Shown here: piece after piece, positions 9,001 through 46,100 of the stretch | How positions within the stretch are numbered: the first letter of the stretch is position 1 | How the letters are laid out: every line of letters starts with the position of its first letter | NCBI RefSeq assembly: GCF_023055435.1 | Contig: NW_025963890.1 | Coordinates: 52,576,001 to 52,640,000, forward strand | Direction: 5' to 3' | Origin: Haliotis rufescens | Lineage: Eukaryota | DNA length: 64,000 nt | The notes under the pieces: model-generated | Database searches by the model: none | What the model was told of the DNA's origin: nothing | Seen by the model: the letters and a program-made list of their open reading frames with translations, nothing else | Made by a program: the position numbers and the translations under genes

Positions 9001-11318
9001 CTGAAAACCTTTTCTACCCCGCATCTTCACGGATCTCTACCCAGTCCTCTAAGTAGCTACCATTTTGGTGGACAAATGTGACTTAAATCTATGATTGGCA
9101 ACCTAGATTTATCTACTGCTCGCCACTTGGCTCCCTAAAAGTACGGTAACTGGCAAAAATATCTGTTTAAGATATCTGGAGGCTCCTAAAAACTCAGGTT
9201 TGGCTCCTAAAGTGTTCATGTTAAGAGCCACTTGGTTCCCTAACAAAAAAACGAACTTAGAGGGCTGCTACCACAGGACAAAAGGCACCCTACCTGTCCC
9301 TGGGGAGATACAGAAGTTGTCCTCCACAGACTGGCCATAGTACTCGTCATCATCATCGTACTCTGCAAAACACAACATAGTCCTGCATGTACAACTTCAA
9401 CATTACTGAGTGCATCATTACCCATGCTAACCCAAACAGCATTCCTACAAAGAAGACATAACATTTCTCCACAACTTGCCTCCATTTAGTTCCTAACTCA
9501 CACACAGATCAGATTCTATGTAACCAGTGTCTGATATGAAAGTGGTCCTGGGGACCTTCAGCATGTTCAGGTCTTCCATGGCGTTTGAATCAAGACACCC
9601 CTAAATCCTTCGGGATAACACAAGACATTTTAGCTTTCATACTTAAATTGGAATACTGCTGGTAATGATTACATGTACAAAGAGTACAGTTGTAGACATG
9701 GTAGAAGGCTTCAAGACGGCTTCATGTGTCACATGAACTTAAGCACGATTGGTAACATCCAGAGGAACCCATTCATCCAGACAGTACCATTCCCAGTGAA
9801 ATCAAGCAGACTAACAAATCCTGGATGAATGAATCTAACCATACATATAAATGTTCCTAACAGAACACGGCCAGACTGAGGCGCTTTCAGGGAAATGGGG
9901 TCCTCACAAACAAGGTTTCATAACAATTAAGTTTTTAACGTTAAGGTAATGAATTTCATCAAATTATATAAGCTGACATCTTTTGCTTGTAGTTTTGCAG
10001 ATAAGCATGCTAAGGACGACGGGAACAGTACCTAGCATTATGATGATTCCCACCACTGACTTCAAGTATATGTATGTACAAGTTATACCAGTATATCAGG
10101 AAATGACATAATAATTGAATTTCTAAAACATAACTCATAATTAACCAGATGATAAAATATCATGGCCTTAATCACACAGTCCACCTGAAAAGACAGTTTC
10201 AGATGTGGTGAGAGGGTTTAATAGATCAATTACACAATGCTCCATGAGTGATAAAATATATTTGTATTAACATGATTTATGTGCATTTGTAAGCGGTCTG
10301 ACAGTATTATCCGCATTAGAAATTGGCACTAGTACTGTAGTCCTTGCCAAACTGCCTAATAGTTAAGGTATCACAAGGACTAGTAGAAAATAGACATTTT
10401 AGGTTTTTTTCTATATGTTAACATCATAGAGTAAGGACTAGTGGACTGACACTGTTAGTTTCTACCACTGACTTTGAGTGTAGGAGGCCTACTCCAGCAG
10501 GTCACAAAGGTCTACGAAGCCCAATTTTATCATGTTTGTGAGGACTTATTATGAACTGTCAATTCACATATAGTGGGATATTAGTTTATAAATTTGGAAA
10601 GTGTATAATCTTGCCCTGAATCATTACCTATGTTTATCACACTAAACAATTATCGGAGGTTTTGAGTCATTATAGCACAAAAGTGCAGTTTATCAGAAAC
10701 AGCACTCTCTACAATATGATACGACACTTCTGTACAAACAGCCATTGTTCCATGTTGCACTGATCCCACTGTCGTAGCTGCTGCACATTCTAAACCGACT
10801 GAGATTTATGTTGCTTTATTCATTCCTTTACCATGTTTACAACCGTCCAGGATTGAGATCCCTTCATATGATGTCTTTAAAATCAATAAGGATAGGTATT
10901 TTTAATGTAATACTGTATGTCACACAGGGAAGAGCGTCCATAAAGTGTTCTACATTGTTCATATCGCAATAACATTTTTTTATTGTTGATCAGTACGATT
11001 AAGCCTGCGTGCTATTTAAAGGCTGAATTTCAATTGATCTTTCACCACATTCCACGTCTATAACGCTGCTGAGTTAGATCCATGTGTTGTATCGTGACGA
11101 ATTTGACACGGCAAACGTAGTTTTCTCCCTACAGATTTCTCTTTAGATGATGAAATATGAAGAAAACATCATCTGATGACACTGGCGCGGAAAGTTCCTT
11201 TCTATCGGATCCAGCATGTTTGGAATCGTCAGATCGAATTACAGGGGCACGCCATCCTTCTCTATTGATACTTACCATCATCTAGGTTCATGCCACGCAC
11301 AGCCCTGTGGCGGGACAT
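6068..11318 (-). CDS. HBS1L: HBS1-like protein, coding exons 1-4 (N-terminal domain); gene continues past the left edge
   Basis: Exons 11276-11318, 9294-9362, 8489-8641 and 6068-6202 have GT-AG phase-1 junctions. They splice to [46 protein letters not shown]...AKLNSCLEEVHNILGESRPDSVYTEIIIKHKFNLQASLDELLSKK, matching the conserved HBS1L N-terminus (MARHRNVRG...YGQSVEDDYCISPSTAAQF). Confidence 0.93.
6546..6720 (-). mobile_element. SINE family B copy, split by an insertion (resumes at ~8400-8416)
   Basis: Matches other B copies (cagcaatattccagctat...gaccacccg...ttagtcgcc); the continuation ccttatgccaagcat follows the insertion. Confidence 0.7.
6721..8399. mobile_element. Non-autonomous DNA transposon (CAG...CTG ends, 7-bp duplication; P or hAT type)
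   Basis: Interrupts a SINE. CCTTATG is duplicated at 6714-6720 and 8400-8406; ends are cagtgtt and taccctg. Confidence 0.55.
6866..8189. mobile_element. Tc1/mariner-pogo-type non-autonomous element nested in the previous element
   Basis: TA|CAGTGATCGCTCGCTA ... TAGCGAGGGACCACTG|TA terminal inverted repeats with a TA duplication; no transposase ORF. Confidence 0.7.
8800..9035 (-). mobile_element. SINE family B copy (diverged)
   Basis: Colinear with other B copies, ending ctaccccgcatcttcacgg. Confidence 0.7.
9042..9267. mobile_element. Small MITE
   Basis: TIRs CAGTCCTCTAAGT / ACTTAGAGGGCTG with CTACC on both flanks; internal ggctcctaaa subrepeats. Confidence 0.5.
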
Positions 11319-22700: not shown

Positions 22701-25700
22701 ACCGTAAAACAGAAACACACAATGTAAAACGGAGTTATTAATTTTCATAATGGCGTGAAAGAAACAAAACCCAAATCATTCGATTTCAGGAATTCATCTT
22801 CGAATATCATCTTTGTACATCATCCTTTCTTCACACCTGGAATGTGACCATCACTTGGACATGACACGCAGATATTCACGTTATACATCATGTCGGCCTT
22901 CGACAAGCAGATATTCACGTTATACACCTCCCCATGTCGACCTTGACATGGAGATACTCATGTTATACACCACCTCATGTCGACCTTGACATGCAGATAC
23001 CCACGTTATACACCTCCCCATGTCGACCTTGACATGCAGATATTCACGTTATACACCACCCTATGTCGACCTTGACATGCAGATACTCACGTTATACACC
23101 ACCCCGTGTCGACCTTGACATGCAGATACTCATGTTATACACCACCTCATGTCGACCTTGACATGCAGATACCGACGTTATACACCTCCCCATGTCGACC
23201 TTTACATGCATATACTCACGTTATGCACCTCCCCATGTCGACCTTGACAAGCAGATATTCACGTTATACACCACCCCATGTCGACCTTGACATGCAGATA
23301 CCCACGTTATACACCACCCCATGTCGACCTTGACAAGCAGATATTCACGTTATACACCACCCCATGTCGCGACCTTGACATGCAGATATCCACGTTATAC
23401 ACCGCCCCATGTCGACCTTGACATGCAGATGCTCACGTTATACACCTCCCTCATGTCGGCCTTGGCTGCCTCGTCATCCACCGCCTGCTCCTCCGATCTC
23501 CCGCCTTGCACGAGACCCACCAGCACGCGCTGGAAGTCACCTGACACCTCCGACTTGATGTCGTCTTCCAGGTCGGACTTGAACAACTCTGCGAAGCAGG
23601 GGACATGACGCTACGGTGATGAAGACAGACGAACGTATACACACTGCAGGACATATGTGGTGGAGATGGTTTTTGAAAAAAGCCCATTTAGAGAATTCCA
23701 GTCCACCAATCTATATTGTATGTACAAGATTTCAGGCAGGCTTTCGTTTACATCTGTGCAGAGACCATATCACGGTATCTGATCTGTGGTATCGTATGTA
23801 CAAGATTACAGACAGTGTGTCTACATCTGTGGTATCGTATGTACAAGATTACAGACAGTCTGTGTCTACATCTGTGGTATCGTATGTACAAGATTACAGA
23901 CAGCCTGTGTCTACATCTGTGGTATCGTATGAACAAGATTACAGACAGTGTGTCTACATCTGTGGTATCGTATGTACAAGATTACAGACAGTCTGTGTCT
24001 ACATCTGTGGTATTGTATGTACAAGATTACAGACAGTCTGTGTCTACATCTGTGGTATCGTATGTACAAGATTACAGACAGTGTGTCTACATCTGTGGTA
24101 TCGTATGTACGAGACTACAGACAGTCTGTGTCTACATCTGTGGTATCGTATGTACAAGATTACAGACAGTCTGTTTCTACATCTGTGGTATCGTATGTAC
24201 AAGATTACAGACAGTGTGTCTACATCTGTGGTATCGTATGTACAAGATTTCAGACAGTCTGTGTCTACATCTGTGGTATCGTATGTACAAGATTACAGAC
24301 AGTGTGTCTACATCTGTGGTATCGTATGTACAAGATTACAGACAGTCTGTGTCTACATCTGTGGTATCGTATGTACAAGATTGCAGACAGTGTGTCTACA
24401 TCTGTGGTATCGTATGTACAAGATTACAGACAGCCTGTGTCTACATCTGTGGTATGGTATGTACAAGATTACAGACAGTCTGTGTCTACATCTGTGGTAT
24501 CGTATGTACAAGATTACAGACAGTGTGTCTACATCTGTGGTATCGTATGTACAAGATTACAGACAGTCTGTGTCTACATCTGTGGTATCGTATGTACATG
24601 ATTACAGACAGTCTGTGTCTACATCTGTGGTATCGTATGTACAAGACTACAGACAGTCTGTGTCTACATCTGTGGTATCGTATGTACAAGACTACAGACA
24701 GTCTGTGTCTACATCTGTGGTATCGTATGTATAAGATTACAGACAGTGTGTCTACATCTGTGGTATCGTATGTACAAGACTACAGACAGTCTGTGTCTAC
24801 ATCTGTGGTATCGTATGTACAAGATTACAGACAGTCTATGTCTACATCTGTGGTATCGTATGTACAAGACTACAGACAGTCTGTGTCTTCATCTGTGGTA
24901 TCGTATGTACAAGATTACAGACAGTGTGTCTACATCTGTGGTATCGTATGTACAAGATTACAGACAGTGTGTCTACATCTGTGGTATCGTATGTACAAGA
25001 TTACAGACAGTCTGTGTCTACATCTGTGGTATCGTATGTACAAGATTACAGACAGTGTGTCTACATCTGTGGTATCGTATGTACAAGACTACAGACAGTC
25101 TGTGTCTACATCTGTGGTATCGTATGTACAAGATTACAGACAGTCTATGTCTACATCTGTGGTATCGTATGTACAAGACTACAGACAGTCTGTGTCTTCA
25201 TCTGTGGTATCGTATGTACAAGATTACAGACAGTGTGTCTACATCTGTGGTATCGTATGTACAATATTACATACAGTGTGTCTACATCTGTGGTATCGTA
25301 TGTACAAGATTACAGACAGCCTGTGTCTACATCTGTGGTATCGTATGTACAAGATTACAGACAGTGTGTCTACATCTGTGGTATCGTATGTACAAGATTA
25401 CAGACAGTCTGTGTCTACATCTGTGGTATCGTATGTACAAGATTACAGACAGTGTGTCTACATCTGTGGTATCGTATGTACAAGATTACAGACAGTCTGT
25501 GTCTACATCTGTGGTATCGTATGTACAAGATTACAGACAGCCTGTGTCTACATATGTGGTATCGTATGTACAAGATTACAGACAGTCTGTGTCTACATCT
25601 GTGGTATCGTATGTACAAGATTACAGACAGTCTGTGTCTACATCTGTGGTATCGTATGTACAAGACTACAGACAGTCTGTGTCTACATCTGTGGTATCGT

Positions 25701-28700: not shown

Positions 28701-31172
28701 CTACCCCGGATCTTCACAGGTCCCTTTGTTAGGGCAGTGGGCTCAAGTTGCGTCCCTTTCCCGCCAGTATCTGACGGCGGTGGGTTTGACTCCTATGTAG
28801 GGATCCCATTTGAGTCTGTCAACACAATATTCGTGTTCGTGGGTTTGACAAAAGTGACATATAGATCTACTACCTGCGTCAAAAAAATTATCATAGCAAC
28901 AACCCAACTCACTCACGCAATGAATCTCATGCTGTTTTAGTGTAAGGAAATATAACCATGTGATGGCAGCTCAATGACTTAGTATTGTGTTGCCATACTC
29001 TACTGGACTGATGGGTAGCCAAGTAGTTATTAAAGCGTTCGCTTGTCAGGCAGAAGACCCAGGTGTAATTCCTCACATGGGTACAATGCGTGAAGCCCAT
29101 TTTTGTACTTCCCCGCCGTTAAACTGCTGGAATATGAGCTATAAAGATTTAAGTTCGCTAAAAATATTTGACTGTTTTGTTGACGATTTATTTTTGGAAT
29201 GGCAACAAAAAAATTTTTTTATTATTTATATATAAATGGCTTCCCAATCATGCAAATGGAAAAGTTAAAACGTGTTTTTGAACGTGAGATGAATGTATCA
29301 TATATACCTTTTGACCTAAACGGTAAGAGTTAAACACGGTTTGAGTTAAACTTCGTAGTTGTGGCGTTCACAGGCTATTTTAACCTACTCATAAACCAGA
29401 ATCTATATACGATATATGGTCTCTGCATTAACTAACCAAAAACAATTCCGACGAACAATAAAGAAAACTGAAGTGGTCTTACGTGTGGACGGACATGGGT
29501 GTCCAGTACACGAAGTATTGTTTGTTGTCTAACGCCGCATATCAGCAATATTCCAGCTAGATGACGGCGGTCTGTCAATAATCGAGTCTCGACCAGATAA
29601 TCCAGTGCTTGATACCATGAGCATCGACCCATGCAATTGGGATTGGATGACATGCATCAACTAAGTCCGCTGACCACCCGATCCCGTTAGTCGCCTCTTA
29701 CGACAAGAATGGGTTGCTAAAGACCTAGTGTAGCCCGGATCCTCAATGGTGAACGTAAGGCTGTCACGTGGCACTACACACAACGCACCACGTGTTGTAT
29801 TTTGGGATGAAGGTTGGACGCAGTGTTAAATTTACTCATTGTGGAAATACCAGGTCATTTCATACCATTAGGGACACCAACATTTAGAATTAGTACATGC
29901 ACAAACGTATGGCTTTGGACTGGTGAATGAACTCAGGGAACGGCTCTGTCGAGCGAAGCTTGTTGTGACAAAATATTCTGTGTGTTACACAAGAGCGCCT
30001 GGTGTTCTTTAGTCAGGTGTTGAACACACCCGATATTTCCATGTGGCGATGTGATATACAAAGCACATATCTTGACATCTTGATACATCTTCTGCAATAT
30101 TGGTCGCTATATGGCTGGAATAATGCTGATGCGACGTTAAATTTTAACTCACTCACTCTACAATATTGCCTCGTGTTCCTTATTTTCCGCCGTCAGTATA
30201 TGCGATAAATCTCACCCAGTCCCTTCATGGCCTTACGGAGGCGGCTAGCTGCATCCTCGGAGTTGAAGGAGGCGGGGTCCGTCCCTCGGATTGTACCCTG
30301 AAGCGAAATGAACACGTGGATACAGCAACGTCTTGAACTGCATCCCCTACATCTACTCCAGCTGCAGGTTTACATCTACATGATTGGATGGTAGTGGTAG
30401 AGATGAAAAATATATATAGATGTTTTTATCGACCTAGAATCTACATCCATATTTTTAAATATTATGTTAATTGTCAGAGACATGAATTGTTCCATGGAAG
30501 GGTCACTGATAACATAAAATTCGTTGAGGAAGAGGGTGGGTAGAAACTGTATCATTGTCGTTGTGTTGACGACAGGTGTTGCTTGCCAATTTCAATTGAG
30601 GACATTGCTTCTTAAAGACTTCCTCCCAGTATATACATATACACATAAAGATTATATCCTAACGCTGAACAGTGTCAAAATTTAACAGAAGTTGAAACTC
30701 TATACTTGGAAAAGGGCGTTCTAAAGTGTGAGCAATGATGCATAAATCGGATAAAAGGGAGACAACTGCGTGATCGCTGTGCGCATTCCTCCGTGGTTAC
30801 TGATGTGATATTGTGCAAGGATTAACGCGTATATTAGCGGCGCACGAGTATCAGGTCAGGTGTAATCCCGATATATTGTATCAGAAATCTGCGTTAAATA
30901 CGTACAGGGAGAATGTCAACTGTCAGTGGTTATTTTAGGGCCTTGTTTCCGCATTATCCAAACATTGTTTACATTAGCAACCAAATCTCCTCAGTGATCA
31001 CCCTTTCTGTCTCACTTGTACATCAAAAGCAGACGACAAACCCCACAGCAGACGACCCAACCACGTCACCCACGTGAGATAAGGCCTGTTATTACATGGT
31101 TTGATTGAGCATGTAAGTGGATGATTATGTCATATAGAATGTTTTACTCACTTGACAGTAGGAAGCAGCCAT
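19756..31172 (-). CDS. Annexin (four-repeat invertebrate annexin), 332 aa, 9 coding exons
   Basis: Exons 31152-31172, 30216-30297, 28179-28273, 27497-27610, 27300-27387, 23437-23588, 21861-22041, 21301-21413 and 19756-19908; GT-AG, 999 nt in frame. Motifs LRKAMKGLGTDE, DLIEDLKSELAGHFE, AMKRLGTKE, DLEDDIKSEVSGDFQRVL, GEGLRFSTDE, SMDGAGTDD, IKKDTSGDYRKLLL. Confidence 0.95.
19915..20325. mobile_element. Cluster of SINE family B fragments in both orientations
   Basis: Minus tail 19915-19965, plus copy ~19975-20157, minus copy ~20160-20325. Confidence 0.7.
20803..21082 (+). mobile_element. SINE family B, full length
   Basis: gacccgtgaagat...aggcgactaacgggatc...gctggaatattgctgagtgcggcgttaaac with a (CAAC)n tail. 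Confidence 0.85.
21105..21335. repeat. ~61-bp tandem repeat (3-4 copies) derived from the annexin exon 8 donor junction
   Basis: Minus-strand unit GCGTCTTATGCACGGGTAGTGTCCCACTCTGAG|GTACGTGGGG... versus exon end GCGTCTGATGCAGCTGGTTGTGTCCCACTCTGAG|GTACGTGGGG. Confidence 0.9.
21494..21780 (+). mobile_element. SINE family C (diverged)
   Basis: gattcgctgtgcagagttgcgtccc...gacctgcatcact...(ACTC)n. Confidence 0.7.
22100..22730. repeat. Degenerate CA-rich ~14-bp tandem repeat
   Basis: Recurrent taaaacacacaccg / taaaacacactg. Confidence 0.8.
22860..23465. repeat. 43-bp minisatellite (~14 copies) derived from the annexin exon 6 donor junction
   Basis: Minus-strand unit AAGGTCGACATGGGGTGGTGTATAAC|GTGAGTATCTGCATGTC versus the real junction AAGGCCGACATGAGGGAGGTGTATAAC|GTGAGCATCTGCATGTC. 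Confidence 0.92.
23715..27270. repeat. 45/43-bp minisatellite (~80 copies) filling annexin intron 5
   Basis: Unit ctacatctgtggtatcgtatgtacaagattacagacagtctgtgt, plus a 2-bp-deleted variant. Confidence 0.95.
28470..28722 (-). mobile_element. SINE family B, full length
   Basis: Reverse copy colinear with the 20803 copy. Confidence 0.85.
29010..29135 (+). mobile_element. Degenerate SINE family A
   Basis: gggtagcc...aaagcgttcgct...catgggtacaatgcgtgaagcccat. Confidence 0.65.
29518..29745 (-). mobile_element. SINE family B
   Basis: Reverse copy with ttagtcgcctcttacgacaag. Confidence 0.8.
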
Positions 31173-43100: not shown

Positions 43101-46100
43101 CACATAAGTACTGGAATGATGGACACATAAGTACTGGAATATTGGACACATAAGCACTGGAATACTGGACACATAAGCACTGGAATACTGGACACATAAG
43201 TACTGGAATATTGGACACATAAGTACTGGAATGATGGACACATAAGTACTGGAATACTGGACACATAAGCACTGGAATACTGGACACATAAGCACTGGAA
43301 TACTGGACACATAAGTACTGGAGTACTGGACACAGACAAGTACTGGAGTACTAGAAACGGGTATTAGCAGTGACATGGCCCACCCCATGCAGGTTGTGAT
43401 TTTCAACATGCATAATTCATCCGTTAACAATATGGCTGTTGTGTTGTGCGACAGCAATAAACGGACTCTGACAGGCAGAGTGAGTCGTACAAGCGCCGCC
43501 AACAGACATCAAATATTCACAGAGGGAAAGAGACGGACATTAACGAGACAAAGGTGTTAGGTGAATTGTGTATTTTCAATCAACCTATTTGAACTAAATC
43601 CTATTTGAAAAGCAGAAAGATATATCGATCCCAGTATGTGACAATGCTACACGCCAGCGTTTAAGGAAAGTCTATTGCCGTAGTGGCTTGTCTGTTTGTT
43701 TGTCCCTTGTTCGGATCTAGTGAGTCGTTAAACGTCCTGTGAAGGAGCACGGGTTTTCATGCCCGTCATCGTTTTAAAACAAGGTAGGTTTGCGCCTATA
43801 ACTATCAACATGGCCGAATTGATGTCAGATTTGTATTTGTAATTACAGTTTACACATTTAGTCCATGGATACAATTGATAATTGTATTATAATTATGCTA
43901 TGTTGTGCTATAGGTCTACACGAGTATACATACGCCATGTACTCAATCACTGTGGTATAAGCCTGTTATCGCCTGCCTGTGAGTGTATACCTTGTGCTCC
44001 GGGCAATATTGCATTAAAACACCTGTACACAAGTGTGTGGTGAACAACATATGAGGGGAACAACCAATAGAATAAACTGCTACTCGAACACCTTTGTGTC
44101 ATGAACGTATATCCGTAGCCCTTTAAGTCTTCATAATTTGAAAATACAAAAAAATACAGTTACAGTAAACTACGCTTATAACGAACACGCTTATAACGAA
44201 CTTATTTTTTAGACCCGGCCATTTGTTGCATATATGCTGTATGTATGCTTATAACGAACTACGGTTATTACGAACTAAAATTAGTGGTCCCTTTGAGTTC
44301 GTTATAACCGTAGTTTACTGTATGTTTCTTATCCGAAAATATCTATTGACACCGGTCAATGTGATCATGACTTTCTACACACAGACCTTATAGGTCCTGC
44401 TTGGGCAAGACTGGTTAGATATTATAGGTGTTTCTGTGTGGGAGTGGGACATACATAATACCTCTTACTTGTAATAAGGAGAGAGTAGGTTTACCGGTAT
44501 ACGGTTGGCCCTGTGTGTTTAGCTATACAGTACGGACAACAGTGTCACGGCAGTACCCCGACTCCGTATAGGAAATCAATGGGCCCGTATATGCGGGCTG
44601 TGCTCGACAACCGGGCGCCTATACATGTACATTGTATATGAGAACTACTAAGCACCTATGCACGTACAGTAAACTACCTTTATAACGAACACGCTTATAA
44701 CGAACTGTCAGATATAACGAACTTATGTTTTGGTCCCGTCAATTGGCTATATATTTGCTGTATCAGAGACCATATATGGTCTCTGGCTGTATATATGCAT
44801 ATAACGAACTGCGGTTATAACGAACTAAAAATAGTGGTCCCTTTGAATTCGTTATAACCGTAGTTTTCTGTATATGTGTACACTGCATGATGACCAAACA
44901 CGAGACTAACATCTAGTCTTTGAAATGAACATATTGTACAGTAAAAGCAGAAATATGATAAAAAGGAGCCCAGAGACTTTCTTCGTGTTCCTGATACTGC
45001 AGTAATCTAGACTTGCCAAACATTATAGACTTGCATGGGCTGTATTGGATATATTTGTTTCAGGGTCTGTATGGCAGACTAACCAAGTACCAAAATATGT
45101 ATATGCAAACTGCGTTCGACGACCGATCACATATGCAGGTATATGCAAACTGCGTTCGACGACCGATCACATATACATGTATATGTGAACTGTGCTTGAC
45201 GACTCATCACCTATACATGTATATGCGAACTGTGTTTGACGAATAGGCACCTACACATGTATATGCGAACTGCGTTCGACGACCGATCACCTATACATGT
45301 ATATGCGAACTGTGCTTGACGACTAGGCACCTTTACATGTGTATGCGAAATGTGCTTCGCGACCAGCACATATACATGTATGTGCGAACTGTGCTCGACG
45401 ACCGAGCACATATAAATGTATATGCGAACAGTATACCCCCACCAAGCACCTATACATGTAAATGTGAACAGTGTTCAACCACCAAATACCTATACATGTA
45501 TATGCGAACAGTATTCAACCACCAAACACCTATATTATATGTGCACTGTGTTCGTCGACCGATCACATATACGTGTGTATGCGAACTGTATTCAAGCACC
45601 AAGCACCAAGCACCTGCACCGGGTTCGCACACAATCAGAGGGTGACAGGCTGACGGCGCCTCGGTTTCAGTTATACAACAGGCTGGTGGTGTTTATACAC
45701 TTATATAACCCTCACACGGCGCTCGGCTACTACTTACTCAAGCTGTTCTTAATTCTAATATCCCGTATTGTTTGTGCTTGCGTCCATTTACGTATAGGTT
45801 TTTACCCTAGATTTGGAATGTGGTGTTGAAGAGATTTCTACTTCAGACGGAACACTTAATATGTTTGTACAATTCAAGCAAGTCGCAGATAGGGAAATAC
45901 GGAGGTGGGTTGGGGTGAGGGCGAACTTCAAATGTTGTCATGGTTGTACAGTGACGTCATTCATTGCTATACCCCTTGTCCCCACAGTCGGACAATAGGC
46001 ATATTCCGCCACGGGGTCAAAGAAAAAATCCAGATAAATATATATCTGACATGTATACTTAATATGTTCTTAATACTCTTCCAGAAACTTAAACAACTAG

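Follow-up and report, generated by a model that had tools for sequence, protein, structure and literature searches.

A perfect 22-bp palindrome between two copies of the heptamer GCTGTAT lies at positions 44757–44792 of the 64-kb stretch of Haliotis rufescens DNA analysed here (the window), inside a MITE. Its position raises the question of whether it is the footprint of an excised P-type transposon, as the earlier note proposed, and what such a footprint would reveal about the enzyme that made it. The coordinates and the sequence were confirmed: the palindrome (44764–44785) is preceded by the left target copy (44757–44763) and followed by the right one (44786–44792), both copies being kept with a 7/7 match. 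The host MITE (44667–44870) is TA-flanked with CAGT ends, and we take it to be of the Tc1/mariner type. Its sister at 44163–44320 has the empty target site, with one GCTGTAT and without the 29 extra bases, as had been noticed. The target is likewise single in the other sister MITEs, and a remnant of the scar was found in none of 29 further copies of the family fetched from the genome. The window copy is the sole scarred one among those checked, and none of the MITE copies checked contained a full element at this site. The junction of the target with the TIR occurs three times in the whole genome, and the other two occurrences lie outside the host MITE family. This family is very high-copy (2530 first-look candidates), and the host MITE also carries a 17-bp extra internal segment relative to the sister at 44163–44320.

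The 64-kb window includes only two perfect palindromes of at least 16 bp, the scar being one. The other (45167–45188), also of 22 bp and about 400 bp away, lies within a tandem repeat and is unrelated to P ends. Its presence would suit an origin of the palindrome at 44764–44785 by chance or as a locally templated hairpin insertion. Against such an origin, a genome-wide search for the two-arm pattern with 0–20 bases between the arms, of the kind the earlier note had suggested, revealed 882 exact stubs of 22–42 bp in the 1.33-Gb genome as compared with 0 for the control, so that further copies are far from few. The arms are identical with the ends of long elements, and in one family of stubs they differ from each other (see below). 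A chance palindrome is ruled out by these three observations, and chance or local templating together can be regarded as practically inconceivable.

The exact 13-mer end alone occurs 3270 times in the genome, as compared with 62 times for the control. The first 30 ends listed, all from a single contig rather than randomly sampled, comprise 17 from 13 two-armed stubs, 2 from a long element and 11 that lack a second arm. Scaling from these 30 ends and the total of 3270 gives roughly 1,400 two-armed stubs, or about one per Mb. The claim that three inserts in 64 kb imply very many scars thus stands in that the copies are many, but they number in the low thousands and not in the tens of thousands. 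The window has three exact 13-mer ends versus ~0.16 expected (from 3270 in 1.33 Gb), and is unusually scar-rich as compared with the genome.

Both related inserts that had been reported in the window are real, though one arm is damaged in each. The second scar (insert 23759–23781, 23 bp; 23752–23788 including the duplications) is flanked by ATCTGTG with a 7/7 match, and has one arm internally deleted and a core similar to that of family B described below. It lies in the first of 14 listed units of a 43–45-bp satellite, the other units being without it. The third scar (insert 29397–29425, 29 bp; 29390–29432 including the duplications) is decayed and resembles the commonest family B form, 17+13 bases of the two ends; its duplication, taken to be of 7 bp, matches at only 6/7 positions.

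The family PF21787 matched 28 places in the genome, and 10 kb was fetched around each of 19 of these. Longer elements with the ends of the stubs, as sought, were found in three families, A, B and C, and are 7–8 kb in length. The family A parent (L069:1760–9783, 8024 bp) has a 30-bp TIR and a perfect 7-bp target-site duplication. In the TIR of its sister, the family B parent (L073:1230–8289, 7060 bp), bases 1–13 are the same as in A and are followed by three bases, as compared with four in A, before a common AGGGAC motif. The TIR of the family C parent (L067:2131–9456) differs from those of A and B and is itself unequal, the left and right copies differing at bases 8–10. The inner motif is present at 236 ends, the first 100 of which include 85 of A, 10 of B and 5 variants, and these ends belong mostly to non-autonomous copies of 1.5–2.8 kb; a perfect 7-bp duplication flanks 7 of the 9 pairs of non-autonomous ends checked. 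The 882 exact stubs compare with 236 parent ends, and a further 131 stubs belong to family C. Family D (L070 and L071) has the catalytic gene as well as the second gene described below; a search of 25 kb around each copy revealed no TIR pair. More distant P-like transposases, with ~25–27% identity to that of family A, are present at five other loci (L075, L078 and L081–L083).

The A and C transposases match the TNP-like RNaseH_N, GBD and RNaseH_C domains (PF21787, PF21788 and PF21789) over the Pfam cut-offs; the family B frame is broken after PF21787. The sole PDB match of the family A transposase is the fly P transposase (6p5a_A, E 1.5e-13), with which the acidic motifs align. The DDE RNase H core with a GTP-binding insertion and the D(2)H motif are present in the A and C parents; the core with its insertion is shared with the Drosophila P transposase (PDB 6p5a) and zebrafish THAP9/Pdre2, as described in PMC10983969. 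The parents also have the TIRs and the target duplication within the 7–8 bp by which the P superfamily is recognised. Judged from the scar lengths only, they would perform GTP-dependent cleavage with long 3′ extensions.

Scars of each family were collected for analysis of their flanks and junctions. For A, 65 listed places were taken in order out of 420 matches, with two places at one locus (L084) omitted, and 3 flank duplicates were dropped to give 62 sites; for B, 62 listed places taken in order out of 301 matches gave 61 after removal of 1 flank duplicate; and for C, 43 places out of 131, with seven further tandem copies omitted, gave 42 after removal of 1 flank duplicate. A perfect 7-bp duplication was found in 12 of the first 15 exact stubs and flanks 50/62 A, 39/61 B and 31/42 C scars; consistent duplications of this length, as had been predicted, are therefore borne out. 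When lengths of 4–10 bp were tried, only 7 fitted, and no perfect 5-, 6-, 8- or 9-bp duplication was found in the 62 A, 61 B and 42 C scars. At seven sites the duplications match after a one-base shift, which suggests small junction indels or, now and then, a stagger of another length. Across 100 perfect duplications the target bias is GT-N3-AC-like (G83, T134..A134, C83 of 200 symmetrised counts). A 7-bp duplication with a palindromic target (GTANTAC) is shared with Galileo, another member of the P superfamily, as described in PMC4168063. In Galileo, according to that text, the TIRs are long foldback structures and a THAP domain is present, whereas the parents described here have TIRs of ~30 bp and no THAP was found in them.

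The stubs could be tiny non-autonomous hairpins moved in trans by a P transposase, the alternative that the earlier note itself had named. They do consist of TIR tips with a proper 7-bp duplication and the same target bias, and a few forms recur with different duplications at unrelated sites, a pattern which repair bias would also explain. The family C scars, in which the two ends can be told apart, speak otherwise. Among 42 of them, 36 join a left to a right end, 1 is left+left, 2 are right+right, and 3 are ambiguous (36/39, p 4e-8). A self-made palindrome has identical arms, whereas the C arms are unequal and joined left to right; hence the stubs represent the two ends of one element. A–B hybrid stubs were not found genome-wide (0), although both arms reach base 16 in 33/62 A and 26/61 B scars.

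The junctions are heterogeneous, with 35 distinct forms among the 62 A sites and 24 among the 61 B sites and no homogeneous master sequence. Inserts that consist of (TA)n or are templated by the TIR occur frequently in A and B, and blunt joins and microhomologies of 1–4 bases are present as well. The commonest B forms are 17+13 (18/61) and a 16+16 form with a CG overlap (13/61). The first 50 of the 60 stubs of 20–23 bp include 29 of 20 bp, 17 identical to the 22-mer of the window, 1 variant of 22 bp, 3 of 23 bp and none of 21 bp. The 20-mer corresponds to a product of annealing at ATAT (12+12−4) and the 22-mer to one of annealing at TATA (13+13−4), these two forms making up 46/50 of the short scars; the recurrent forms thus include microhomology products of the tails. 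Further points against mobile hairpins are that the stubs lack any internal binding site and the inner TIR half, which is contacted by the HTH domain of the fly enzyme in the part of PMC7776569 describing the structure, that a stub of 20–34 bp could not remain paired if it were cut 17 nt in from each end, and that the copy in the window is unchanged under other organism labels (see below). Mobile hairpins are thus disfavoured, above all by the left+right joins in C and the lack of A–B hybrids, and are very improbable indeed.

Excision scars are, in contrast, expected to have this anatomy. Excision junctions of the fly P element, as described in PMC2895639 and PMC7776569, contain the target duplication and at most 17 nt from either end, joined blunt, by microhomology or with a templated insertion, and the scars described here share the duplication and TIR tips joined blunt, by short microhomology or with templated insertions. 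The fly junctions were induced and have an 8-bp duplication and 17 nt, whereas those in H. rufescens are natural, kept by the thousand, and have a 7-bp duplication and 18 nt in A.

The stub arms are prefixes of the parent TIRs in A, B and C, and their maximum lengths, read from repaired products and not from cuts, differ between the families. In A, 67 of the 76 arms reaching base 17 match base 18, and only 6/67 of those match base 19. In B, base 18 is matched by 1/55 arms reaching base 17, and in C by 3/13. The difference between A and B is highly significant (Fisher p 5e-26). Only 10/330 arms go beyond the ceiling of their own family, and in 8 of the 10 the excess is one or two bases. The deeper stubs are 2/165, one of A (30 nt) and one of C (25 nt), besides which base 19 is reached by 5 A arms and 1 B arm. 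Hence the ceilings are 18 in A, 17 in B and 17 in C, that of A falling short of full proof, and in all three families the ceiling is one base before a GGA motif. Four one-armed sequences match family A over exactly 18 bases, without a second arm or a duplication; possibly they are scars whose opposite side was lost to a deletion.

These ceilings bear on an origin of the stubs as extreme internal deletions, produced by aborted gap repair or by deletion between paired TIRs with no long staggered cut. Internally deleted copies of 1.5–2.8 kb are indeed common, and the two deeper stubs keep 25–30 nt of one end. However, an internal deletion would not be expected to end at base 17 or 18 of a 30-bp repeat, nor to end one base apart in sister families, and it is at odds with the rarity of arms that exceed the ceiling. 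Such an origin is very improbable.

The earlier note cited the 17-nt overhangs of Drosophila, a length which fits B and C; in A the ceiling is 18. It could be argued that the stubs are scars of a fixed 17-nt cut in every family and that the 18th base of A was added in repair, since 17 is the figure obtained in B, in C and in the fly. The commonest A scar, of 32 bp, is readable either as 18+15 with a 1-base overlap or as 17+15 blunt, and since the 18th base of A is an adenine, some junctions could derive it from the other arm. On the other hand, no plain 17+17 join is present among the 62 A scars, as compared with 2/61 in B and 1/42 in C, and 7 A scars keep 18 bases on both arms, with or without a variable insert between them. 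Family A also includes scars in which the arms are joined directly as 18+17, 18+16 and 18+13. A cut fixed at 17 nt in A is therefore considered unlikely.

Taken together, these data indicate with high confidence that the palindrome in the window is a real, old and repaired germ-line excision scar of a P-superfamily element. Among the observations that point the other way are the 3/39 C scars with like ends and the 11/30 TIR ends without a second arm. As the 22-mer keeps only bases 1–13, which are common to families A and B, an origin from A and one from B are indistinguishable. In the proposed mechanism, the transposase would cleave one strand exactly at the 3′ ends of the element and the other strand 17 or 18 bases further in, so that a single-stranded 3′ tail of TIR sequence would remain on each flank. 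In the case of the window scar, the tails would have annealed at TATA (bases 10–13), and trimming of the flaps and filling of the gaps would give 13+13−4 = 22 bp. Polymerase theta is a likely candidate contributor to the end joining.

Some scars have had a later history as sequences in their own right. A tandem array (G000:C41:209161 onward) has a 41-bp unit consisting of a family C scar and one target copy, with at least eight exact matches among those listed; a family C scar seeded this minisatellite. An identical 32-bp scar with identical flanks is present at four places, having been copied along with its host repeat. Family A elements themselves carry a passenger 35-bp scar with its own 7-bp duplication, in five copies (L069:8579–8613, L068, L072, L077 and L079).

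Contigs from three sequencing runs, X11 and X12 of organism B and X15 of organism C, include the scar together with its MITE context; they show 2 differences, and no gap interrupts the scar. The unique left flank in those contigs differs at 25/366 and 10/~360 bases. Only 23–30 letters are present to the right of the scar in the three pieces, and the X11 scar contig does not continue into the left flank of the window; the site is likely orthologous under the other organism labels. No full-element allele at the scar was listed in 7 runs, 3 of which include the scar and three of which (X1 and X2 of organism A, and X19) gave no listed piece that spans it, and no locus in both the full and the scarred state was found among the MITE copies and the 7 runs checked.

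The position of the inner cut would be determined by sequence, one base before the GGA motif. The five bases that follow the cut nearly repeat TIR bases 3–7; thus, the freed 5′ end could form five Watson–Crick or G–T pairs near the tip of the transferred strand. In each of A, B and C the best register is that of cut minus 2 (shuffle p ~0.01 per family and 0.2 for any register), A and B not being independent. The 23 outermost bases of the fly end, as given in PMC11368186, also allow five pairs at the cut-minus-2 register, as well as six mostly G–T pairs at another offset. Re-pairing in the fly structure is described as required for transposition in PMC7776569.

The supposition that the parent is P/THAP9-like holds for the long elements with these ends and their P-type transposase; the layout, however, is not that of THAP9. 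The A and C catalytic frames stop ~40–50 residues past the RNaseH_C match, and the C-terminal domain is not in the catalytic chain of A and C but on the opposite strand. It is assigned to a second, convergent gene (L069:6657–7598 and 9057–9470, minus strand), present also in the B and C parents and in both family D copies. The gene has an acidic start, a C2H2 finger exon and a 310-residue exon, and is kept in families A, B, C and D at 38–52% identity. Near the five more distant transposases, no match to it was found in the 10 kb fetched.

By single sequence, the second protein gave Pfam matches only below the cut-off, and a 5-sequence profile matched no P chain. Its nearest named homologue is an uncharacterised Haliotis rubra protein (52% identical), and it has 1668 relatives at E ≤0.001, the best 150 of which are all shorter than 481 residues. 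A profile of 114 sequences had as its sole match 6p5a_B, the fly C-terminal domain (E 3e-4), and PF12596 was matched in 6/114 profile members. The structural model (pLDDT 92), when compared with 6p5a_B, gave Z 10.8 and rmsd 2.5 over 117/118 residues (VIA-align), the next row being at 6.9. Foldseek ranked 6p5a_B first, with E 0.62, and Atlas gave only scores below 0.8. The product of the second gene is thus predicted from modelling to fold as the C-terminal domain of P transposase. According to PMC7776569, the domain in the fly enzyme is in contact with the single strand that loops out. We infer that the catalytic protein and the second-gene protein act together, and in the proposed mechanism the enzyme would work with this second element-encoded protein.

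No THAP match was found in the long frames, in 10 plus-strand frames of A or in 71 of 83 short upstream frames of A, B and C, where small exons could hide one. The canonical P/THAP9 transposase is one polypeptide with an N-terminal THAP domain, whereas in four families here the C-terminal domain belongs to a separate convergent gene that has a C2H2 finger exon. The parents are not canonical P/THAP9 elements.

Overall, it is probable, though less firmly so than the scar itself, that the inner cut of these P-type enzymes is set by sequence and not by a 17-base ruler. It would lie one base ahead of GGA, where a 5-base sequence begins that nearly repeats TIR bases 3–7 and would allow re-pairing with the tip, and a one-base indel between sister families would shift the overhang from 17 to 18. 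At the same strength, the enzyme here would be a two-subunit P transposase without THAP, receiving its C-terminal domain and a C2H2 finger from a second gene, and the scars would outnumber the surviving copies several-fold. The scar type is already known from fly experiments, and the mechanism proposed here is a variation on it. No report of natural P-type scars, of other overhang lengths or of two-gene P elements was found in a literature search whose coverage leaves out most subscription journals and Repbase reports.

The scars reveal, from the genome alone, where uncharacterised enzymes cut. Sister families A and B, one TIR base and one ceiling base apart, amount to a natural experiment for telling a ruler from a sequence signal. 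Past excisions that left no element can also be counted from the scars, which preserve a record of how an animal germ line repaired long 3′ overhangs and link P-type cleavage to an architecture split over two genes.
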